Source: a virus. From it: DNA of 36,345 bases. Position numbers and translations under genes: made by a program. The stretch is taken from UHGV virus genome UHGV-0073579, one strand, 5' to 3'. The notes beneath the pieces were generated by a model. That model had not been told where the DNA came from. It did no database searches and was given only the letters and a program-made list of their open reading frames with translations. Below, in pieces: positions 1 to 36,345 of the stretch. How positions within the stretch are numbered: position 1 is the stretch's first letter; the number at the start of each line of letters is the position of its first letter.

Positions 1-610
1 GCTGACCCGGTATTCTCTCAAATAAAAAACGAGCATTTTTAAATCGACTGACATCTGGAAGAGTTGATACTTTAAAAGTAAGCCCTCGCCCATCTATCTT
101 TTCACCACCTGTTGCAACAGAAAGTAATTCTGATAGAGCTGATGTATCATCATGAACACCATCACCAATAGCCCCCCAACCTCTTACATCATAACTGTCT
201 CTCCATCTTGCTATCTGAAGTTTTGGGTATTTATTCGCTCCATCTGGGTCTTCTAATTGCTGCCGTAACTGATCAGGATCATACTTCAGCACATTCGGAA
301 AATAGAACTGCTGCACACCATATGCATCATAAACAGCCATAGAATGGCCCTGTACAGTAACGAATTTGGCAATCTGTCCGTTATATACCGGATATCCAGC
401 AGCGTTAATGATGATTGGTTGCGAAACAGGAACGTGAGAACCGTCTTCATTCTCCACATAAACCTGAATCTGGTTTTCAGGATTTACTGGGTCAGTGTCA
501 ATTTTACCGATATAAATCTTTCCATTAGCTACGGCTTTAAAAGAACGAGCCATAGTGAAGAGTTGCGAAGGCATGCTTACCACAACATTGGCATTTATTG
601 AATCTGTCAT
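1..610 (-). CDS. Tailspike protein, N-terminal part (gene continues beyond window start)
   Basis: Minus-strand ATG at 610..608 with GGAG 9 nt upstream; translation [14 protein letters not shown]...[38 protein letters not shown] matches the conserved P22-type tailspike head-binding domain; the downstream part diverges; no stop before position 1. Confidence 0.85.
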
Positions 611-666
611 TTAATTTGCTCCAGATACAAGGAATCACCGAAGCATGGCTACGATGAATTTTGGGC

Positions 667-693
667 ATAAAAAAACCCAGCCGAAGCTGGGTT
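667..693 (-). terminator. Rho-independent terminator after ant
   Basis: Hairpin cccagc-cgaa-gctggg followed by a T-run on the minus strand (A7 on plus). Confidence 0.55.
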
Positions 694-710
694 GTCGCGT
701 TGGTTATCTG

Positions 711-1640
711 TCAGTAGTTATGTACTGAAGGAGGTAATTCTTTATTCTTAAGTCTCATCCATGCGGAAAGATTCGTTGGTCCGTCTGGCTCATTGATATC
801 AACATCTCGTGTGTGGTTTATTAAAACGTCTCTTGCCATTCCGATAACATACGAGAACTCATGGCCATAGTCGTAGCATCTGCCGGAATAGTTCGATTGA
901 ATTTGTTTTAGCGCCGGATACAGTTCGCGGAATAATGCCTGTGAGCGGTTGGCATAATCCCATAACCATACAAGGCTGTTTGCTTCTTTTGCAGAAAGCT
1001 CGTTGGTTTTCTTCTCTTGTTTGCCGATGAACTCGCCTTCAAGCGGAACGCGAGCTGCAAGTGACAGAGCTTCGGTAAACTGCTCATCGCTGATTTCTTT
1101 GTATGAACATCCAAAATGGGATTTCAGTGACGACCACATGGTGATCATCGCCTTAGCCTGTTTTTCCTTTGGCAGAGACTGACCGCGACTCATGACGAGT
1201 TGTTTAATGGCTTCCTGCTGTTCAGTGGTGATTTTACCCGGCAACGCCTTTTTAGCTTTGCGTGGGTTAACTACATGGCCTTTAGTCCAGTATTCGTAGA
1301 GCACATCGTCACACTCTTCCTGATACTGGATTACCTTGTCGCGGATTTCAGGGCGGACTTTGTTAGGGCTAATGGTTTGCAGCCAACCTGCAAGTTTGCG
1401 AAGTGCCAAACAAATAATCTCACGGCGCTGTTCATCACTAGGAAGCTGCATTGTGATTTTCACAATGGAGGTTTTAAACCGCTGCTTCATTTTCGTAAAC
1501 TGTGAAGCCCAATCCATACCCATGCCTTCAACGATAGGTTTCATTGGGGTATACGGTTCGCCGTTGTGATTGACAACATAAAGCTCTGCGCCGTGGAATG
1601 GTACATTGATAGTAGATACTGCTGTTGCTATACTTTTCAT
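711..1640 (-). CDS. ant: Antirepressor Ant
   Basis: 309-aa ORF; N-terminus [41 protein letters not shown] as recalled for P22 Ant; lies downstream of arc and opposite mnt. Confidence 0.8.
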
Positions 1641-1673
1641 GTCGTTAATTCCTATGCGTGGTTTTACGATACC

Positions 1674-1720
1674 GAAGCCCTGACTGTTCCCGCAGTTGGG
1701 GCTTCACTGTTTTGATTTCT
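1674..1720 (+). terminator. Plus-strand hairpin plus T-rich tract between ant and arc (possible terminator of a sar-like antisense RNA)
   Basis: gaagccc...gggcttc stem followed by actgttttgatttctttg on the plus strand; no T-run on the minus strand. Confidence 0.35.
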
Positions 1721-1873
1721 TTGCCGCATCAAGCATCACTTCTGAAAACGTGCGCTTGCCACTGAATACTCTTTCTCTTCTCAATTTTTCGTTCGTGCCA
1801 AATGATTCGCCATGAACAAAATTTGGTCTTAAAATGGTAATCGCAATCTCTTTGACTACTGCATCCAAGCGAA

Positions 1874-2026
1874 TCACACCGTTACCCCCTCTCTCTTCAG
1901 GCTGTCTATCAGGCGCTTGATAACCTCTGAGTTAAACGACCTGCACTCTTCCTTTGCCCTGCTACCGATAGCATCCTTTAACGACTGCGGCATCCTTACC
2001 AAAATCTTACTTATTTCTTTCTCCAT
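1874..2026 (-). CDS. arc: Arc-like ribbon-helix-helix repressor
   Basis: Internal ATG at 2026 with GGAGGG RBS; 50 aa MEKEISKILVRMPQSLKDAIGSRAKEECRSFNSEVIKRLIDSLKREG resembles Arc (..NGRSVNSEI.. motif); the track ORF start at 2062 is probably upstream of the real start. Confidence 0.7.
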   Translation of the reverse strand: MEKEISKILVRMPQSLKDAIGSRAKEECRSFNSEVIKRLIDSLKREGVTV

Positions 2027-2062
2027 GTTACCCTCCACACAAACAACTCTTTTCGAATACAA

Positions 2063-2140
2063 AAGATAGCAAAGTGAGTATATCTAGTCAAAATTTTTTT
2101 GCATACACTTTGATATCAAATTGAATACCAAAGGTGTGAT
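2063..2140. promoter_or_regulatory. Divergent arc-ant / mnt promoter-operator region
   Basis: 78-bp AT-rich interval between divergently oriented arc (minus) and mnt (plus); by analogy to P22 Pant/Pmnt; individual operators not resolved. Confidence 0.4.
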
Positions 2141-2389
2141 ATGGCAAAGGGTGTGTCAATTTCTCCAACTACGGTAAGAATCCCTGAATCTTTACGCGAG
2201 GCTCTTGCTGTCAGAGCATCAAAAAATGGTCGCTCTGTTAACTCCGAGATCGTCATGATTTTGCAAGCCGCGATTGATGAAGATAGGTCGCCAAAGTCAG
2301 TTGAGTCATTTGCTCAGCAAGAAGCTGACAAATTCAAAGAGGCGCTGCTTGAGACGCTAAAGACCATGTATGGTAAGGATGAAAAATAA
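2141..2389 (+). CDS. mnt: Mnt-like ribbon-helix-helix repressor
   Basis: 82 aa; KNGRSVNSEIVMILQAAID and C-terminal FKEALLETLKTMYGK resemble P22 Mnt; divergent from arc. Confidence 0.75.
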   Translation: MAKGVSISPTTVRIPESLREALAVRASKNGRSVNSEIVMILQAAIDEDRSPKSVESFAQQEADKFKEALLETLKTMYGKDEK

Positions 2390-2925
2390 TGCTGCACACA
2401 ATTCATTTCTTATGCCCCGTTAACACTGCCACTGTTGGGCAACTTCAGAACCACTGTCTCACCGCATTATCTCAAGGCGCAACTGAATTAAATATCCATA
2501 TATCAAGTCAGGGAGGGGAAACTGCCGCTGGCTTTACTGCGTATAACTTTCTTAAGTCACTCCCTGTTACCGTTAGAACTCACAACATAAGCAATGTTGA
2601 ATCCATAGCTAATATCGTTTTCCTGGCTGGCTCAGAACGTTTCGCAAACCCATTATCAAGATTCCTGTTACATCCTCTATTATGGGGCTTTGCCTCCCCA
2701 GCCGCCGACCATGCCAGATTGAGAGAGTACGGGAAATGCCTCGATAACGATCTTGATCGCTTCGTTGAGACGTTCAATATCGACATCGGAACCCATATTA
2801 GGTGGGCATCCCTGATAGCAGACTCGACCATTTTGGATGCTAACAAGGCTCTTGAGCATGGCATAATTAATTCCATAAAAACTGCAAGGCTGGCATCCAA
2901 TCAGGCAAACTGGTGGGTTGTTTGA
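2389..2925 (+). CDS. ClpP-fold (S14-like) serine protease homolog
   Basis: 178 aa; start overlaps the mnt stop (TAATG); ISSQGGETAAGF / SNVESIANIVFLAG / RFLLHPL segments align to ClpP INSPGG / AASMG / MIHQP, with candidate Ser and His retained. Confidence 0.65.
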   Translation: MLHTIHFLCPVNTATVGQLQNHCLTALSQGATELNIHISSQGGETAAGFTAYNFLKSLPVTVRTHNISNVESIANIVFLAGSERFANPLSRFLLHPLLWGFASPAADHARLREYGKCLDNDLDRFVETFNIDIGTHIRWASLIADSTILDANKALEHGIINSIKTARLASNQANWWVV

Positions 2926-2952
2926 TGGGTAAATCATGATTACTCCTTATAA

Positions 2953-2977
2953 AAAACCCACCTGACGGTGGGTTTTA
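2953..2977. terminator. Bidirectional terminator between convergent operons
   Basis: aaaaacccacc-tgac-ggtgggtttt: GC-rich hairpin flanked by A-run and T-run. Confidence 0.6.
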
Positions 2978-3400
2978 TTAGTGCTTGTATAGCTTGAACT
3001 CCCTGTCGAGCCATAAGACATAAAAAGTGGCTCCTATCTTATAACCAACCATAGGTGCCTTAGAGCAAAATCTGAACGCAATGAAATCCACATCTTGAGT
3101 AACATGCTTAGGAATCGGAGCCTTTATCGCGTTTCTGGCAATTTTTTCCGTCCCAAGCCCGTGTTTATCAGATTTTCGTATCTCATCCCATGACATCTGA
3201 CTTAACCTGAACAGCCTATCTGCAAATGCTGCCTTTTCATGCTTTTGGCAGCAATCTAGGCAATACCCCTTTTGTAGGTATCTAAGAGAAAATACAGGCG
3301 GACTTTTGTCTACATCATGAGATTCGTGATGGATAGAGAGGCCAACAGTAGCAGAGCTCTCTTTATCCCTCTGTTTTATTCTTCCCTTAACTCTAGACAT
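2978..3400 (-). CDS. Hypothetical 140-aa protein, coupled to the Panacea-domain gene (candidate toxin/effector)
   Basis: ORF starts 5 nt after the upstream gene's stop; basic N-terminus, Cys/His cluster (HHESH...CLDCCQKH); no family recognised. Confidence 0.5.
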   Translation of the reverse strand: MSRVKGRIKQRDKESSATVGLSIHHESHDVDKSPPVFSLRYLQKGYCLDCCQKHEKAAFADRLFRLSQMSWDEIRKSDKHGLGTEKIARNAIKAPIPKHVTQDVDFIAFRFCSKAPMVGYKIGATFYVLWLDREFKLYKH

Positions 3401-3405
3401 ACACG

Positions 3406-3849
3406 TCAGTTAATTAACGTTTTGAAAAAACCTTTCATAGAATCAAGTGTGATTTCTTGGCTAACCGCACCCTCAATGTAAGCATCTTTCCATGGCTGCT
3501 CTTCGTGAGTCATATTGCGCAGTTTCCAGGCAGAAAACTGACCATAAACTTTATACACCTCATCCAGCAATTCAATTTCATCTTCACTGAATTTTTTAGC
3601 GTCAAAGTTTTCTGGCGCAGGTAAAGCTCCGTTACCACAGTCCCTATATTTACGATACAATTCAGGAACTACTGGCCCATGCATCCAGGCTTCAATTTTC
3701 TCATTAAATAGCGGCTTACCCAGAAGAACCAGAGAAAACCCTTGGGCATAATACGTCAACTTCTGAATTTTTAGGTTAGAGATAATGTCGCCACTTTCTT
3801 CATCGCAATGCGCCAAGAAGTAGTCGGCGACATCAAAACAAGTGAGCAT
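3406..3849 (-). CDS. Panacea-domain (DUF4065; SocA/GepA-like) protein
   Basis: N-terminal DVADYFL...KIQKLTYYAQGFSLVLLGKPLFNEKIEAWMHGPVVPELY pattern typical of DUF4065; start chosen at the ATG with GGAGG 7 nt upstream. Confidence 0.7.
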   Translation of the reverse strand: MLTCFDVADYFLAHCDEESGDIISNLKIQKLTYYAQGFSLVLLGKPLFNEKIEAWMHGPVVPELYRKYRDCGNGALPAPENFDAKKFSEDEIELLDEVYKVYGQFSAWKLRNMTHEEQPWKDAYIEGAVSQEITLDSMKGFFKTLIN

Positions 3850-4223
3850 AAACATACCTCCATCTTGATAGCCGCAGCTATGTATACAACTGTGTCAAGT
3901 TGCATTTAATACCATAACAAAGCTGTCATCAATCCTTCAGAGGCTAACTTACAACCACTTTCTCGACACGTTTAAATCATTACGTTTCACATTTACTGCA
4001 TTTTCGCCGAAGTTACCTATAAGGTAATGTCACATTTCCTGCAAGTTTCATGCAATGTTGAAAAGTGAGCTATTCACTTTTCTATGACACTAAACACCAA
4101 AAATAGCACTTTTTGCTAAATCATTAGTCCAAGTTGTGGATGGTTTGTCGTTGACACGTTTTCACACACCACTCCACCAATACAGTATCATCTGGTATCC
4201 TGCTCAAAACTAAGGAGGTTGGT

Positions 4224-4451
4224 GTGAAGCGATGGTTCCTCATAATTACTGTTTTCGCGATCATTTACACTATTTTCCCTGCATTAAAAGCACCAATGCA
4301 AATAATTTCGCTAGCAATAATTGCAATTGGTGCTTTCATTGCAGTAGCCGTACTTGTGTTTAAGGTTTTAAAGTTTTTAGTTTGGCTATCAAAAGATGAT
4401 GGATGCAAAGTTCATCAAGAAAAAGAAGGCAAAATAACCAAAGTTGACTAA
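4224..4451 (+). CDS. Small predicted membrane protein (two hydrophobic helices)
   Basis: GTG start with strong RBS taaggagg 5 nt upstream; 75 aa with two hydrophobic stretches; divergent from the Panacea operon. Confidence 0.55.
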   Translation: MKRWFLIITVFAIIYTIFPALKAPMQIISLAIIAIGAFIAVAVLVFKVLKFLVWLSKDDGCKVHQEKEGKITKVD

Positions 4452-6571
4452 CTGTCACTAGCGAGCCATGTAATAATCCCCGTGCGGGCAATGGTTTTTG
4501 CTTCATCTGTTGATAAGGTTTTCTCCCATCTCTTAAATGCCCCAGATTGCATCAGTTTCCTTTCTATTACGCGTCTCACTTCTGCTCTGTCTACTGGTGC
4601 GTTTTGCAGGCGAAATAGCATTGATTTAAACTCAGGAGAAGACAGTAGAGCATCAGCAGCCTTTATCCTGCTTGTTTTCCCTGACATCAATGCTGACGTT
4701 ATCACCCCTGTTGCACCTACACCAGGAAGACCAGATAAGCTTGTAATACCTTCCGCCGCAGCGGCTTTTGAGGCTATTCCATAAATTTTTGCGAGACTAC
4801 CCTTTTCTTTCAGAAAGTTATTAACTTGCTGATCCACAAGACTACTAGCATACTGCTTACCAGTATTGAGTCTATTCATAGCCTTAGCTGCTTGATAAAT
4901 CGTATCAAGGCGCTTTGATGCATCTGTGCCAATAGCATCACGGAGAGCCTTCATATTGGCCCCATTGCGTGACATTCCGTTATACCATTTTACAAATCCA
5001 TCAACTCCTAATTGCTGACCAGGTGATTTGGCATAGCTGGTAAATGCTTTATTCATTGAGGTGAGCGCAACTTCCTGCCGCATATCCTTTGGAATCGACT
5101 TCATTAATTGCCTAAAGTCGCCACCGTTTCCTTTTGCCATATTAACAACAGCACTTTCAACTTTTGGAATTGCTGATTGCTGAAGTTTTCTACCCAAGAC
5201 GGTTACAGCATCATCTTCAATGGATTTTCGTTTTTTTACCAACTCCTTACCAAGCGTCCATAATTCCCCTGCGCCATATTTTTCTGCGACAGCCTGTTGG
5301 TCATCTGTTATGGCTGCATATAACTTTTTAAGAACACCTGTTTCTTCATCCTTGAATGGACCAGAGCCTTTGCCAATAGCTTGTCCAACCTGCTTTCTAG
5401 CGAGATCTAAACGCCCATACGTTGGCAAGGTGTTTGGATCAAGTCGGTTCAATGTCCGCTTCATTATTGGAGATAATTCATCAATTCCACCTATGTCATC
5501 AGCAAAATCCTCTAAAAAATTCAATGTATTAGTTGCCTCAATCCGGTCTCTTACAGGAACCTTTTCGGCAATTTTGTTGTAGATGTTATCTGACTGATTT
5601 TGTAATGATGAAATGGTTTTATCAAAATTATCTGCAAGCCTGTCAGAAACCAGTTGCTTATCAAGGCTTCCCCCAAATGAAGTTATCATTTCATCAGCTT
5701 TTCTTCCTAATTCAGTAATAAAACGCTTATGCGCCTCACTAATCTCTGTTCCAGGGAGACTTGCCACTGCATTATCAAGAGCCCTGACAGCAGGATTATT
5801 AGAGATCATGCCAGGAGTGGCATAATTTTCCAGTTCTAGCTCACGAATAGCATTTATCGCGTTAAAATCAGGATTAACTTCATCGGCGAAATCTTGAATA
5901 GCTCGTTGCCCGCCGATAAATTTATTGTCCATTGCGCCAGCAGCTTTCTTTAACGTTGCTTTAGATGATTTACTACCCATCCCTACGGATGAGCGATAAA
6001 TATCTCCGGCACTATTTTTAATTTTTCCTGCAATCTTCCCAAACGCTGGACCAACAATCTCTGCTACAGGGCCAGCCACAGCGCCAATAGCAGCTCCAGA
6101 AGCAACATCGCTATTTGTTCCATTGGCTACAATAGCCCCTTCTCCAGCACCAAGCCCTGCGGCGGCAGCCAGCCTTGCCGCCCCTTTCGGAACCTGAGAA
6201 ATAATCCCACCACCACTAACAAATGGTGCTGCTTGTCCAACGAACTCACCAACATCTTGTGCGGTTGATGGTTTTGCCGCTAACTTCTGCTGTAGAGACT
6301 GAATTGCGGCTTGCTCTTCTGGTGTCATATCCTGAAATAGACCAACACCTTTACCAACATCCATCAATCCACTGAGAACGCCATACATAAAACGGTCGAA
6401 GCCGTTAGCATTATTAACAACATTTTCCTGTCTGGAATTTTCCTCTGGTGAAACCAAAGGTGATTGCTGCTGCTCTGCTTGGGAATCAAGCACAAAACCA
6501 TCAGGAAGCTGTGAGTTATCAGGCTGATTATCGAGAACAAATCCTTCGGGTAAACCTACATCGGTTGCCAT
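4448..6571 (-). CDS. Ejection (internal) protein, P22 gp16-like
   Basis: 707-aa ORF immediately downstream of the gp20-like gene in the conserved gene order; Gly/Ala-rich. Confidence 0.65.
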
Positions 6572-7899
6572 TGTCCGTTCCTATAAATGAGTTTCTGACC
6601 AGTTTTAGGGTTCGTTGCCGTCGCGCCTTCTGATATCCAACTTGGCGCAGCTTTTGTCTGCCCATTACCACCTTGTGGTGTAGGCTGCGCTGGGACATCG
6701 TCAAATAGCTTGGCCTTCCTTCTCCCTAAGCTTTTTTTTAGCCCTTGAGGAATAGTATCTCCATACGTATCCAGATATTCGTCTACCTGCTGGTTAAACT
6801 GCTGCCCCATAGCGTTGGCGTTAATTTTGGCTGCGTTAACAATGTTATCCCTCGCTTCCTGTGACAAGCCATTCCCTGCATTAAGCTGGTCTACATATCC
6901 TTTTATCTGCCCCCATATGCCATCAGAGCGCATGACCTGAACCTGTTCACCTTCGCGAACAACTGACTGAGGGTCGAGAGACTTCATGTAATTAAAGATA
7001 ATCCCAAGTTGGGCAGCGCCAGTATTTACCTTGCTAAGGGCTTGCAGAGAGTTTGCCGCCGCTCTGACAGAGTTATAATTTTTGCCAAAATTGGTAATAT
7101 CAGAATTTAATCCCTTAATTAAGTCTGCTGACGGCTTACCTTTTTGCCCCAGCTCCATTAGCTTCAATCCCATCTCATCTGAGTGCATTTGTGCCCGCTG
7201 AGCCCTGTCTAGTTGAGCGTTCTGGATATTTGCCCATCCTCTCGCATTCTCCATATCAGCCTGACGGATGCTTTCATCCAATCGCCCTTTCTCAAGTTGG
7301 CGACCAACCATCTTATCCTGATAATCCAGCATTTTATCCGGACCAACAGCCCCTAGCGTCATAGTAGTCAGCATGTGTGATAGCTGCTCTGGATTCTGGA
7401 TACCTGTCTGAATCATCCAGTCAGCATTAGCGCCAACGCGATTTAACCTGTCCTTGTTGTCAGTAATGAATTTACTGTAGGCTTCCGGTCCCTGAGAAAG
7501 AGCGACGTTAGCCCTCATGGCTAAATCGCCCATATCGTTGCGTTGCTGATCATTAAGACCGGAAAACGCCTGTTGTGCCTGTGCAACAAACGCTGGATTT
7601 TCCTGGGCAAACTTAAATAGTCCCGATGGATCACCAGAAGCCCATGCATCAGCGTGAACCTTATTGAACGCACTAATAGCTTTCTGTTGCTGTTCCTGAT
7701 TGTAAATATCAGCAACTCCAGCCAGACCACGTAACGCGGTCAGACCAACGTTATTTGCACCTGAGCGAGCCAGTTCATTGTTTTCGCGGATCAGACCAAG
7801 CGTTGCGTTAATGTCGCTTGCCTTTGGCGCATTCTCATTTTGCGCACCGATGCCAGCAAGAAACCCACCAGAATTAATACCCTGTTGCCACGTAGCCAT
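6556..7899 (-). CDS. Ejection protein, P22 gp20-like
   Basis: 447 aa; position between gp7-like and gp16-like genes; sequence recalled as gp20-like. Confidence 0.8.
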
Positions 7900-7909
7900 T
7901 GATTACCCC

Positions 7910-8602
7910 TTAAAACAACGAGCCAAGCAGACCAAGACCAGCACCGATACCAGCACCCCACGGAGTTGATAGCTCGAGAGCACTGGCTATGCCACCACCC
8001 AAAAGTGCACCGGATGCAGCACCACTAACCCCCTGCTGCAATGCTGACGGTCGGTTGGCGTTTGCCGCAGCCAGCGCCGCGCTTTGCTGTGAAATCTGAC
8101 TCATGTTGTTGGCATATGTTTGCCCGGCGTTTGCCTGTCCCTGAAGAGCGCCAAGACCGATATTTGCCAGGTTGTTGTAATTGTTCATTTGTCCAGATAG
8201 CCATTGCTGACCAAGCGTTGGTGCGATTGTTGCTAACTGATTACTGGTTGCGGTGGAACCCAATCCACCTGTTGCTTCCGCTGCCGCCAGACTCTGATAG
8301 CGAGCCTGACCAGCAAGATCTTTGTACTGCTGAGAGTTGTAATACTGGTTAAGTGCCTGACCTTGCCCCTCCAGAGACGATAAGTTCTCGAGGCTGCCGA
8401 CATACTTCTCAGCCAGAGGAGTAAACGGTTTCAGGTTGTTCATGATGGTGTTGAACTGCTGATTTTGCAGGTCTGCGGCATACTTCTGAGCTTCTGCGGC
8501 ATACTTTGCACTTTTATCAGAACTGCCACCTTTCCCGCCTTTTTCAGGGTAATAAGGTTCCTCGCCGCGCAGTTTTCTGCCCAGCTTAAATGCATATAAC
8601 AT
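7910..8602 (-). CDS. Ejection protein, P22 gp7-like
   Basis: 230 aa; MLYAFKLGRKLRGEEPYYPEKGGKGG N-terminus and Gly-rich C-terminus ...TPWGAGIGAGLGLLGSLF match P22 gp7. Confidence 0.85.
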   Translation of the reverse strand: MLYAFKLGRKLRGEEPYYPEKGGKGGSSDKSAKYAAEAQKYAADLQNQQFNTIMNNLKPFTPLAEKYVGSLENLSSLEGQGQALNQYYNSQQYKDLAGQARYQSLAAAEATGGLGSTATSNQLATIAPTLGQQWLSGQMNNYNNLANIGLGALQGQANAGQTYANNMSQISQQSAALAAANANRPSALQQGVSGAASGALLGGGIASALELSTPWGAGIGAGLGLLGSLF

Positions 8603-8604
8603 GG

Positions 8605-9060
8605 CTATCTCCCGTGATTCAGGAAGTCGATTAGTTCTTCGCGTGTTGCGCTGTAAAAAGTCACGTCATCCACGCCTTTGAAGTATTTCTTGATGGTTCC
8701 TACACGCTTAAGGCCAATCATTGCGCAGTACATCTGACCGTGGCGGAATTTGCGCGCAGCGAACGATGTGACGCACTGAACGGTGGTGTTAGTCAGAATG
8801 TATCGCCAGAACGCCAGCCCGATTTCCTTGCTGAAGCCGCGAATCTCTGGCAGGTACATGGCGTGGCAATCGAATGTCAGCGGCTGAATCTCCTGATAGT
8901 AAACAATGCCGCCGAACTGTCCGTGCACGTTAACCTCAAAGTAACGGCATTCAGGTTTGTAGTCGTATCCATCACCGTTGTTGCTCCCGGCGATAATGTC
9001 AGGGTGATTTCCTACTGCTTCTATCAGGTCGATGTTTCGCGTTGGTTTGAATGTAATCAT
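8605..9060 (-). CDS. P22 gp14-like head/ejection-associated protein
   Basis: 151 aa; position between tail needle and gp7 genes. Confidence 0.65.
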   Translation of the reverse strand: MITFKPTRNIDLIEAVGNHPDIIAGSNNGDGYDYKPECRYFEVNVHGQFGGIVYYQEIQPLTFDCHAMYLPEIRGFSKEIGLAFWRYILTNTTVQCVTSFAARKFRHGQMYCAMIGLKRVGTIKKYFKGVDDVTFYSATREELIDFLNHGR

Positions 9061-9761
9061 CAGTCAATCAGCCCATGTAATCTAAGTGCCGTTTCAATCG
9101 CCAGAATACGCTGCCGCGCCTGCTGCAAACCTGTAGCGAGAGCCGCGACTTCGGATTGTGTGTACGTAGTGCCGACCGTGTATGACTGGTTAGCGTTGAA
9201 TGAGCCAAGAAGAGGTGTACCTGTGGCTGCAGTCCATCCGGTATTTCTTGCTCCAACAACCTGAATTCCATCAACTGAATATGATGTTTTTACATCCAGC
9301 GGTGACGCAAGAGACTGCGATTCGGTTACGGTTTTCGATACGTAATCACTCTTAATGCCAGAGACATCGTTTTCTACGTCATCCAGTCTTTGGTCAACAG
9401 TGACCAGATGCGCCTGAATATCGATAACCTCATCCAGCAAGTAATCAACATCGCTACGCAGTACGACTATCTTCCCTTCGGCAGTTGTTAACCTGACCTC
9501 AAGTAGATTTATCGCTTTTGTGTTTTCGGTGATTCTTGCGTCGTGATCAGCCAGTTCGACATCCTGTTCATCGTTTTTTACCTGGGCATCGTAAGCGCCC
9601 TGACCAGCCTGATTTGCCTTCCCGGCAATTGCGCCGACATCAGCCCCCTGATTAATGACATACAGCAGGTAAGACTGGCTGAATATATTGCGTGGAAGGA
9701 TTGATGTATCGAGTCGTGTAGCCTGAATTGTTACCGGCTCATTGAGATTCGAATCAGCCAT
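9060..9761 (-). CDS. Tail needle protein, P22 gp26-like
   Basis: 233 aa; [25 protein letters not shown]...[21 protein letters not shown] matches gp26 at both ends. Confidence 0.9.
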
Positions 9762-11179
9762 TACTCAATCCTTATCTGGCAACCAGACAGAGTGACAGGT
9801 GACTTCGTGATAACGCGCAATTTGAAGCCGACATTTTTCCTGATGCGCCCTACTCGCTTCCACAAAACACGTTTGTCGTAAACGAACGGTTCATTCTGCT
9901 CAATCATCTGCTCACGCCCGTAATTGATGCCGTCAGTGGTTGCAGAGAGAAAAAGGCGGTCAGCATACTGAGCGACACCAGTCGATGATTCAACTTCCAG
10001 ATCAAAACATCTGGCGTTCTCAGCTTTGAAGAGTGGTGTAAACAACAGGTGTTCTTGCTGTAGCCCATACTGGCTGCTGATATCGAACTGCAATTTGCCG
10101 ATAACCGATTCCAGCTTATCGCCGCACGTTATCTGATTGCCTTCGTAAATGAAGTCGATAGCGCGGTACACATCGTCATACAGGCCTGTTTTCAGCACAC
10201 ACCATTGCGGACCATTGGCGCTTGAAGATGCGTCGTACACGAGGACGTGACGCGGAAGGTGGATAATCAGCAACTCATGAGCATCAAATCGCAGAGACTC
10301 CATCACGCCATCAGCCAGTTCATCAGCAGTGTAGGAGCGGAGGATTTTCTCAATGCTCGCGCTGGCGATTGGTGACACCTGACCGGAGCCGATGATGTAT
10401 ACAGACGGCGCACCTGTTGCCGGATTGCTGATGAACGCATAAGAATCAGCGAATGGCGTTTTGCAGTAAGTCCCAGCAATACCTTTCTGTACCATCAGCG
10501 ATGGCTGCGCGACATACAAAGCAGCACCAACTGTAGTTGCGCCTGTCAGGGAGAAATATTCAATCGTCGATGAACCAAAGCAGACGATAAAGTCTCGCCA
10601 TGTACCTATGCCGATGATGCCGTCAGGCTGAGACTCAGCACGATATTGTGCGCTGTAACGGTCAGGATGCGATTCGTCTTCAAGGTCAGTGATAAACCAT
10701 GAATCAGTGCCGTCTTTTGACCACGCATAACGCCCACGCAAGCGCGTAATGTCGCGGACTGAGCCTAACTCATACTGCGTGAATCCACTGTCTGTAGGCC
10801 AGTTTGAGACGGTTTTAACCGTGCCATCATAGCGATACTCGACCAGTTGACCATTAACGCCTACAGCCTGAGATGTTCGACCATGCGCCATTGATACGCG
10901 ACCACTTCCGGCGACGTCACCTACTTCGCTTTCGCCTTTGTAGAGCTTGCCGCCACACACACGATAAACAGCATTCTGCGCCATGTTGTACTCGACGCCG
11001 CGCGATACGCCGTTCACATCAGAACGTTTGGCAATGCCCGGGAATGAGCGAAGATATCCGCTACTGTTGAGGATTTCTTTGGGGGTAGCCAACATATTCA
11101 CTGGCAGATAGTCGATATAGTCGGCGTTTCGAAAGTCTTTGCCGACACCTTTCATAAGCGGAAGTTGCTGAATCGGCAT
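9761..11179 (-). CDS. Tail accessory / portal-closure protein, P22 gp10-like
   Basis: 472 aa; [48 protein letters not shown]... is near-identical to recalled P22 gp10. Confidence 0.9.
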
Positions 11180-11188
11180 TTATTCACC

Positions 11189-11650
11189 TCACGTACTCGG
11201 ATCATCTTTCTCGATGTAAAACCGATTCCACGTAAACGCGCTTTTGTTACCACTACCGCGAGGCATGTCATTTCGCCGCTCAAGTGGTGGTATTTTGGTT
11301 AAAGCGATGCAGATTGTCTGATATGCACTGTCAGCAGCGGTAAGGAGAGCGTCTGACGGCTGAATGACGTTATCCATGCACACTTGCACAGCGAGTTTCA
11401 AAGCGACGCCATCATTTGCCCATGCAGGGATACCTGAATCATCGTCAGGTAACGGCATGATGCCGTTTTCTGTATCAGCAAACTGATACCCAAGCTCGAT
11501 ACCTTTAGCCTGCCATGCTGCCATCATGTCTTCGAGGTCATTAATGGCATCTTCAATTGCCTGAGGTTCAGCATCTGTCAACGTGGCATTGGAATACAGC
11601 CCAGCTTTTCGTAAAGCCTTTAGAACGAGATCACCCTTCGTTTTCGCCAT
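11189..11650 (-). CDS. Head-tail adaptor, P22 gp4-like
   Basis: 153 aa; KTKGDLVLKALRKAG...ATLTDAEPQAIEDAINDLEDMMAAW resembles gp4. Confidence 0.8.
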   Translation of the reverse strand: MAKTKGDLVLKALRKAGLYSNATLTDAEPQAIEDAINDLEDMMAAWQAKGIELGYQFADTENGIMPLPDDDSGIPAWANDGVALKLAVQVCMDNVIQPSDALLTAADSAYQTICIALTKIPPLERRNDMPRGSGNKSAFTWNRFYIEKDDPST

Positions 11651-20505: not shown

Positions 20506-20581
20506 TGGTGCTGGTTAACGGACTTGAACCGCTACCCATTCGCTTACAAGGCGACTGCTCTACCATTGGAGCTAAACCAGC
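20506..20581 (-). tRNA. tRNA-Thr (anticodon UGU)
   Basis: Hand-folded 76-nt cloverleaf: acceptor GCTGGTT/AACCAGC, D-arm GCTC-CAATGGTA-GAGC, anticodon loop CTTGTAA, T-arm AGCGG-TTCAAGT-CCGTT, 3' ACCA; one G-A mismatch in anticodon stem. Confidence 0.6.
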
Positions 20582-20586
20582 ATGTT

Positions 20587-20661
20587 TGGCGGGACAGCGT
20601 GGACTCGAACCACGATAAGAAGGTTAACAGCCTTCCGTAATGACCTTTATATGACTGACCC
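20587..20661 (-). tRNA. tRNA-like element, Asn-type anticodon arm (GUU), aberrant D-arm; possibly a pseudo-tRNA
   Basis: T-arm CGTGG-TTCGAGT-CCACG and anticodon arm GAAGG-CTGTTAA-CCTTC match tRNA-Asn; acceptor has one T-T mismatch; D-stem does not pair. Confidence 0.4.
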
Positions 20662-35003: not shown

Positions 35004-35028
35004 TGCGTGTAATTGCGGAGACTTTGCG

Positions 35029-35247
35029 ATGTACTTGACACTTCAGGAGTGGAACGCACGCCAGCGACGCCCAAGAAGCCTTGAAACAGTTCGTCGATGG
35101 GTACGCGAGTGCAGGATATTCCCTCCTCCGGTTAAGGATGGAAGAGAGTATCTGTTCCACGAATCAGCGGTAAAGGTTGACTTAAATCGACCAGTAACAG
35201 GTAGCCTTTTGAAGAGGATCAGAAATGGGAAGAAGGCGAAGTCATGA
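35029..35247 (+). CDS. xis: Excisionase Xis (lambda-type)
   Basis: 72 aa; MYLTLQEWNARQRRPRSLETVRRWVRECRIFPPPVKDGREYLFHESAVKVDL essentially lambda Xis; overlaps int start. Confidence 0.95.
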   Translation: MYLTLQEWNARQRRPRSLETVRRWVRECRIFPPPVKDGREYLFHESAVKVDLNRPVTGSLLKRIRNGKKAKS

Positions 35248-36295
35248 GCGCCGGGATTTACCCCCTAACCTTTATATAAGAAACAATGGATATTACTGCT
35301 ACAGGGACCCAAGGACGGGTAAAGAGTTTGGATTAGGCCGAGACAGGCGAATCGCAATCACTGAAGCTATACAGGCCAACATTGAGTTATTTTCAGGACA
35401 CAAACACAAGCCTCTGACAGCGAGAATCAACAGTGATAATTCCGTTACGTTACATTCATGGCTTGATCGCTACGAAAAAATCCTGGCCAGCAGAGGAATC
35501 AAGCAGAAGACACTCATAAATTACATGAGCAAAATTAAAGCAATAAGGAGGGGTCTGCCTGATGCTCCACTTGAAGACATCACCACAAAAGAAATTGCGG
35601 CAATGCTCAATGGATACATAGACGAGGGCAAGGCGGCATCAGCCAAGTTAATCAGATCAACACTGAGCGATGCATTCCGAGAGGCTATAGCTGAAGGCCA
35701 TATAACAACAAACCCGGTCGCAGCCACTCGCGCTGCAAAATCAGAGGTAAGGAGATCAAGACTTACGGCTGACGAATACCTGAAAATTTATCAAGCAGCA
35801 GAATCATCACCATGTTGGCTTAGACTTGCAATGGAACTGGCTGTTGTTACCGGGCAGCGAGTTGGTGATTTATGCGAAATGAAGTGGTCTGATATCGTAG
35901 ATGGATATCTTTATGTCGAGCAAAGCAAAACAGGCGTAAAAATTGCCATCCCAACAGCATTGCATGTTGATGCTCTCGGAATATCAATGAAGGAAACACT
36001 TGATAAATGCAAAGAGATTCTTGGCGGAGAAACCATAATTGCATCTACTCGTCGCGAACCGCTTTCATCCGGCACAGTATCAAGGTATTTTATGCGCGCA
36101 CGAAAAGCATCAGGTCTTTCCTTCGAAGGGGATCCGCCTACCTTTCACGAGTTGCGCAGTTTGTCTGCAAGACTCTATGAGAAGCAGATAAGCGATAAGT
36201 TTGCTCAACATCTTCTCGGGCATAAGTCGGACACCATGGCATCACAGTATCGTGATGACAGAGGCAGGGAGTGGGACAAAATTGAAATCAAATAA
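35225..36295 (+). CDS. int: Tyrosine integrase Int (lambda-type)
   Basis: 356 aa; MGRRRSHERRDLPPNLYIRNNGYYCYRDPRTGKEFGLGRD... through ...HLLGHKSDTMASQYRDDRGREWDKIEIK essentially lambda Int. Confidence 0.97.
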   Translation: MGRRRSHERRDLPPNLYIRNNGYYCYRDPRTGKEFGLGRDRRIAITEAIQANIELFSGHKHKPLTARINSDNSVTLHSWLDRYEKILASRGIKQKTLINYMSKIKAIRRGLPDAPLEDITTKEIAAMLNGYIDEGKAASAKLIRSTLSDAFREAIAEGHITTNPVAATRAAKSEVRRSRLTADEYLKIYQAAESSPCWLRLAMELAVVTGQRVGDLCEMKWSDIVDGYLYVEQSKTGVKIAIPTALHVDALGISMKETLDKCKEILGGETIIASTRREPLSSGTVSRYFMRARKASGLSFEGDPPTFHELRSLSARLYEKQISDKFAQHLLGHKSDTMASQYRDDRGREWDKIEIK

Positions 36296-36345
36296 TGATT
36301 TTATTTTGACTGATAGTGACCTGTTCGTTGCAACAAATTGATAAG
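36296..36345. other. attP P-prime arm with Int arm-type binding sites (core lies just beyond the window end)
   Basis: tgattttattttgactgatagtgacctgttcgttgcaacaaattgataag matches the recalled lambda attP P-prime arm; contains AGGTCACTAT and CAGTCAAAAT arm-site motifs in reverse complement. Confidence 0.85.

Follow-up and report, generated by a model that had tools for sequence, protein, structure and literature searches.

The first 610 nt of the window (the whole 36,345-nt stretch of DNA analysed here) appear to hold, on the minus strand, codons 1–203 of an endosialidase tailspike gene of the CUS-3 type, which belongs to a P22-like (Lederbergvirus) prophage. The predicted protein joins a P22-type head-binding domain to a K1F-like module at a junction near residues ~113–121, and the complete enzyme would cut the polysialic acid of the K1 capsule. 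We give this reading a probability of about 0.94. The observation in the earlier note on this DNA, a conserved head-binding domain followed by a divergent receptor-binding region, was confirmed; it needed correction only in the strand, which is minus, and in the nature of the sequence past the head-binding domain. The features of the region, in window coordinates, are as follows.

1 to 610, minus strand: 5′ part of the tailspike gene, codons 1–203, cut at the window edge (translation and tblastn).
2 to 172, minus strand: endosialidase N-terminal extension, residues 147–203 (Pfam PF12218 and PDB matches).
173 to 268, minus strand: linker, residues 115–146, already part of the endosialidase module (alignment to K1F gp17, CUS-3 and 683R2).
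248 to 274, minus strand: module junction, residues ~113–121 (end of homology to most other P22-like tailspikes).
269 to 601, minus strand: Head_binding (virion attachment) domain, residues 4–114 (Pfam PF09008, PDB matches and identities).
619 to 622, minus strand: Shine-Dalgarno sequence GGAG, with an 8-nt spacer to the ATG (direct reading).
666 to 693, minus strand: predicted intrinsic terminator (tANT-like) between ant and the tailspike gene (terminator scan).
711 to 1640, upstream of the tailspike gene: ant (P22_AR_N and P22_AR_C domains).

Direct reading places the minus-strand ATG at window 610–608, and its frame leaves the window at the left edge after 203 codons. The remaining ORFs listed within 1–610 are short shadows in other frames, and the 29-residue segment quoted in the earlier note corresponds to residues 135–163 of the minus-strand tailspike ORF. 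The terminator scan found an 8-bp stem with 5 G-C pairs (window 693–674) followed by TTTTTAT. The late region upstream of the tailspike has the P22 order, with ant, arc, the sar RNA, homologs of gp16, gp20 and gp7, and the needle and stabilisation genes. The tailspike gene thus closes a P22-like late region, coming after the ejection-protein genes and the ant moron.

The head-binding match is not due to chance. Residues 4–114 matched PF09008 at E 9e-66 (219.7 bits against a cut-off of 24), covering profile positions 3–113 of 113, and the PDB sequence matches were to the head-binding domains of Sf6 gp14 and P22 gp9 (E 2e-65 to 8e-46). Over residues 1–114, identity was 112/114 (98%) to HK620, 109/114 to CUS-3, 105/114 (92%) to Sf6 and 86/114 (75%) to P22, which bears out the assignment of the first ~110 residues to a P22-type head-binding domain in the earlier note. 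The epsilon34 genome paper (PMC2629481) gives the same domain as aa 1–115. Thirty different PHROG tailspike families were matched by this domain, which marks it as a widespread adaptor carried by many receptor modules. Given its 75–98% identity to structurally characterised domains, it is predicted to form a trimeric dome on the tail hub. A single-sequence AlphaFold2 model of the 203 residues was unusable (mean pLDDT 38.8, pTM 0.25).

Past the head-binding domain, the sequence departs from P22 as had been claimed: the P22 alignment ends at about residue 114, and identity to HK620 falls to 5/32 over the linker (residues 115–146). Over the same 32 residues, identity was 31/32 to CUS-3, 28/32 to 683R2 and 18/32 to K1F gp17. 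The K1F gp17 alignment begins at window residue 115 (K1F residue 214), so the endosialidase module starts right behind the head-binding domain. Residues 147–203 matched the endosialidase N-terminal family (End_N_terminal, PF12218) with 103.8 bits (cut-off 26.3, E 3.9e-30) over profile positions 1–57 of 67. In the full-length protein this domain spans residues 147–213, and the window edge falls 10 residues short of its end. PDB matches to the extension were to the K1F (1v0e, 3gvl) and phi92 (4hiz) structures at E 1e-15 to 2e-14; together with CUS-3, these are phage endosialidase tailspikes of family GH58. The extension is identical to that of CUS-3 at 57/57 residues and to that of K1F gp17 at 34/57. 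When all 203 residues were searched by tblastn, they were 97% (197/203) identical to CUS-3 siaK1 and 98% identical to vB_EcoP-720R6. The receptor-binding part was said to lie outside the window, and this is mostly so, with the catalytic propeller beginning at residue 214.

Where most other P22-like tailspikes part company with this one is well defined. Megablast matches of HK620, E212, Sf101, Kapi1 and 611R6 start at window 251–269, and the nucleotide identity to HK620 drops from ~93% to 57% at gene nt 331–361. A match to the 610 nt was present in 1,163 of 5,426 complete E. coli genomes; in 155 of these it covered at least 80% of the length, with the same junction. The other ~1,000 match the head-binding part only; among the 30 matches listed for E. 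coli genomes, such matches mostly end at window 248–274. Judged from these alignments, residues ~113–121 are a recombination junction for the exchange of receptor modules among P22-like phages, in agreement with the domain-swap point that had been proposed directly past the head-binding domain, since homology to P22, HK620 and Sf6 ends there.

Divergence from CUS-3 changes at the same place, with 30/342 differences (8.8%) at gene nt 1–342 against 9/2607 (0.35%) at nt 343–2949 (Fisher p 2e-21). This contrast indicates that the head-binding segment came from a P22-like lineage other than that of CUS-3. The earlier note had named uniform identity to a single known tailspike as the result that would speak against a breakpoint. 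In protein sequence the identity is close to that, with CUS-3 at 97% over the window part and at 98.8% in a full-length comparison with the PA45B version, but the breakpoint is still visible in the nucleotide sequence.

To see the rest of the gene, we relied on public contigs. An exact-match look-up with the window's Ant protein led to four of them (L014–L017), all with 0 mismatches to window 1–11640. Complete tailspike genes are present in L014 (981 aa) and L015 (982 aa), and their 5′ ends are identical to the stretch in the window. The other two contigs stop within the tailspike gene, L016 at nt 1985 and L017 at nt 632, and their cut genes show endosialidase domains as far as the contig end. 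The full-length Pfam architecture consists of Head_binding, End_N_terminal, End_beta_propel with an inserted End_beta_barrel, End_tail_spike and a Peptidase_S74 chaperone. The catalytic domains, which lie beyond the window, were matched in the L015 and PA45B genes by PF12217 (E 1.6e-233) and PF12195 (E 2.9e-46). The stalk and chaperone of the genes with an identical prefix, likewise beyond the window, were matched by PF12219 (E 8e-78) and PF13884 (E 1.6e-10). This identical prefix amounts to the first 610 nt for PA45B and to 11.6 kb for L015.

Over residues 115–981 the full-length protein is 64% identical to K1F gp17. All five K1F catalytic residues H350, R549, E581, R596 and R647 are conserved, as H251, R457, E489, R504 and R555, and so is the self-cleavage dyad S911/K916, as S819/K824; all of these positions lie beyond the window. 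The list of K1F catalytic and cleavage residues was taken from PMC12632334.

These features suggest how the protein would work. By homology to the P22 and Sf6 structures, residues 1–114 would form a trimeric domain through which six tailspike trimers dock on the tail hub. From residue 115 onward would follow the endosialidase module homologous to K1F gp17, first the linker and then the extension (147–213). Outside the window, a six-bladed beta-propeller sialidase with its inserted beta-barrel, a triple-beta-helix stalk and a self-cleaving C-terminal chaperone would complete the protein; these later domains are known from the public contigs that match the window over 11.6 kb. The enzyme would bind and cleave the alpha-2,8-polysialic acid of the E. 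coli K1 capsule, an activity shown for CUS-3 and K1F, and so the phage would be able to tunnel through the capsule. The C-terminal domain would aid trimer folding and then be cut off at S819, as solved structures of homologs imply. The gene may be expressed by late-operon transcription that reads through the ant moron, a mechanism proposed for P22 and discussed in PMC2629481. The earlier note had the downstream module set host specificity through O-antigen or capsule. A surface polysaccharide still fits, namely the K1 polysialic-acid capsule, but the O-antigen does not.

The best-surviving alternative, although we consider it improbable, is that the tailspike gene is a defective remnant, internally deleted or truncated, that gives no working tailspike. 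It draws on E. coli Es_ST80_L1_NDM_10_2017 (NZ_CP031215.1), the sole complete genome identical to the window over 35 kb (window 1–35016). The ST80 tailspike (WP_114710104.1) is annotated as 888 aa and is without residues 282–375 of the CUS-3 and PA45B proteins (94 aa, or 282 nt in-frame), a gap that takes away part of the propeller and 51 of the 83 barrel positions. The intS gene of ST80 is also split by an IS110-family element. However, gene nt 844, where the 282-nt gap opens, falls exactly on the first position of the circular record (L002 1–843 joined to L004 1–1824). The same genome has a second, Uetakevirus-type endosialidase gene (NZ_CP031215.1 5041410–5042185), which would create a long repeat. 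Because of these two facts, the gap is probably an artefact of assembly or circularisation within the repeated endosialidase module, and we rejected biological inactivation by in-frame deletion as its explanation. Moreover, the gene is intact in L014 (981 aa) and L015 (982 aa), neither of which has a mismatch to the window across 11.6 kb.

A switch to another receptor module just beyond residue 203, at a further junction outside the window, is less probable still. Minor junctions do occur nearby: similarity to the 683R2 and Gally tailspikes extends from residue 1 to ~150–160 and is then lost, and ZX5-type genes are near-identical only from gene nt ~525. Against such a switch, residues 147–203 are identical to CUS-3 at every position, and all four contigs without a mismatch over 11.6 kb show endosialidase domains to their limit, with the full architecture in the two complete genes.

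The least credible alternative is the one closest to the earlier note, which saw the start of a pectate-lyase-like beta-helix behind the head-binding domain: a fusion to a right-handed beta-helix depolymerase, as in P22, Sf6 and HK620, that would probably be specific for O-antigen. A motif of 13 to 15 residues does resemble the N-terminal motif of PF12708-family beta-helix enzymes, and residues 142–164 gave a sub-threshold PF12708 match (E 0.046), but this match reached only 14 bits against a cut-off of 27, covered only the 23 residues around the GxGDGxxDDT motif (profile positions 4–26 of 213) and occurs equally weakly in K1F gp17, whereas the endosialidase extension family PF12218 scored 103.8 bits over residues 147–203. 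Alignments to Sf6 and epsilon34 extend to residues ~168–170. We rejected this extension as beta-helix homology since the head-binding domain accounts for it: BLASTP of residues 115–203 alone against the Sf6 beta-helix part found no significant similarity (E 0.15) and left the motif unaligned. All window-identical public contigs that reach beyond residue 213 run into a beta-propeller sialidase. A GxGDGxxDDT motif behind a head-binding domain is thus insufficient for calling a beta-helix.

With the CUS-3-type endosialidase as the preferred reading, the surrounding prophage can be considered. Pfam searches placed a lambda-type xis (about 35029–35247) and int (35225–36295) on the plus strand of window 35017–36345, and many genomes have the identical Int beside ybhC. 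In ST80, torI and host csc genes take the place of the lambda-type xis and int; on this comparison, the integration module is swapped relative to ST80, and ST80 was rejected as the source of the window. The window's combination of backbone and xis/int was absent from the complete E. coli genomes in the collection.

Uetakevirus-type endosialidase genes or prophages were found in 85 complete E. coli genomes, including several named K1 strains. The left edge of the window lies 85 nt into the ZX5-type repeat (window 1–85 corresponds to gene nt 525–610), and the metagenome contig L017 ends 22 nt beyond the window edge, at gene nt 632. The position of these contig ends near the repeat boundary suggests that assemblies break there. 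Assembly breakage caused by a second, near-identical endosialidase gene is also the probable reason that the window itself stops at gene nt 610. Duplicated endosialidase modules may break or distort assemblies at the tailspike gene in this way.

In L014 (11031–16095; GCA_012860115.1, contig DABEEN010000011.1), the last ~15 residues of the 981-aa tailspike differ. After the tailspike come a holin, a GH19 endolysin and a DUF2514 gene in the ZX5 order, and then host genes for a MASE1-EAL protein and ppx. This contig looks like a recombinant of two prophage types through their shared endosialidase gene. Two near-identical modules of ~2.4 kb in one genome would offer a recombination substrate between otherwise unrelated podovirus lineages, and L014 has the appearance of such a product. 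We therefore put forward, tentatively and with the odds somewhat against it, a wider picture: a K1-specific P22-like prophage in which the argW/IntS-TorI module of CUS-3 was swapped for a lambda-type int/xis by ybhC, in a genome that also carried a prophage of the Uetakevirus type whose endosialidase module is nearly identical. This shared module of ~2.4 kb would serve as the recombination substrate between the two podovirus lineages, and the linker and GxGDGxxDDT region (residues ~115–160) would provide extra crossover points.

Several other features of the prophage were observed along the way. Rfam detected a sar antisense RNA (76.6 bits) at window 1642–1708 on the plus strand. It faces the start of ant, an arrangement also found in P22 and epsilon34, so immI-type control of ant appears intact. 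The ant moron also contains a gene for a ClpP-like protease subunit (2389–2925, plus strand; PF00574, E 5e-12) that adjoins an Arc/Mnt-like repressor gene (2141–2389); P22 is without a ClpP-like gene at the equivalent position. On the minus strand lie a 140-aa ORF (2978–3400) and a Panacea-domain (SocA-like antitoxin) gene (3406–3855). The 140-aa ORF is immediately downstream of the Panacea-domain gene in the same orientation and is unannotated in two RefSeq genomes. It matches PHROG 8366 (unknown function) end to end and has no Pfam match; it could be the toxin partner in a PanA-type toxin–antitoxin pair of the ant moron.

At the position of the P22 gp16 ejection protein, the window encodes a 707-aa protein (4448–6571, minus strand) that has no Pfam match and that differs from its PA45B and CUS-3 versions. 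Ejection proteins are hypervariable, and the difference agrees with this. Two adjacent phage-borne tRNA genes, tRNA-Thr(TGT) and tRNA-Asn(GTT), lie at 20506–20661 on the minus strand, upstream of the lysis genes.

K1-capsule E. coli are the main cause of neonatal meningitis, and phage endosialidases are in use as reagents and under consideration for therapy. The tailspike described here would direct its phage to such strains. For CUS-3 and K1F, publications of 2005–2007 already covered the architecture, the enzyme family and the exchange of modules by P22-like and T7-like phages. That the tailspike is a K1-capsule endosialidase is a real but ordinary finding, already known because the CUS-3/K1F module exchange is on record, as a passage of the review PMC5380687, citing Stummeyer 2006, indicates. 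The new elements are small: a slightly different head-binding allele and another prophage backbone.

Among known systems, P22 gp9, Sf6 gp14 and HK620 gp9 share the head-binding domain and the gene position, and their similarity to the window tailspike is undetectable past residue ~120. Their receptor parts are right-handed beta-helix O-antigen endoglycosidases, unlike that of the window tailspike. P22, epsilon34 and HK620 have an annotated terminator at the equivalent position between ant and the tailspike gene, and the annotated order in P22 and epsilon34 (ant, terminator, tailspike) is that of the window.

Up to residue ~160, the vB_EcoP-683R2 and Gally tailspikes are ~90% identical to the window tailspike, a stretch that takes in the head-binding domain, the endosialidase-type linker and the first part of the GWGAIxDG motif. 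From there they diverge (683R2 at L005 3001–5400) into a 799-aa protein without endosialidase domains, whose sole other match past the shared part is a weak one to a five-bladed propeller receptor-binding family. The crossover point in these tailspikes is a second one, and the receptor module behind it is uncharacterised. The Uetakevirus-type vB_EcoP_ZX5 (QTH80017.1) shares the endosialidase module, with 9 mismatches in 2,429 nt from gene nt ~525, whereas its N-terminal ~190 residues are unrelated and serve for attachment to another type of virion.

K1F gp17 (endoNF; PDB 1V0E and 3GVL) is homologous from window residue 115 to the C-terminus, but it has a T7-type tail-fibre N-terminus and a Tail_spike_N domain where the window tailspike has the P22 head-binding domain. 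The K1F passage of PMC5380687 likewise describes a T7-type rather than a P22-type N-terminus. The same review lists the CUS-3 endosialidase and, in a passage citing Stummeyer 2006, states that CUS-3, HK620, Sf6 and P22 share the N-terminal domain and that the catalytic part of CUS-3 is an endosialidase in common with K1F. CUS-3 is a K1-specific Lederbergvirus (PMC11990801, PMC3046976), and its GenBank record gives a direct assay as the evidence for endo-alpha-sialidase activity, with PMID 16689790 as the source. The CUS-3 prophage of E. coli RS218 is the closest counterpart in our comparison: its siaK1 (ABQ88383.1) has the same two-module architecture and likewise comes after ant in the late region of a P22-like phage. 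The window prophage differs from it in the content of the ant moron and in carrying a lambda-type int/xis in place of the IntS/TorI argW module.
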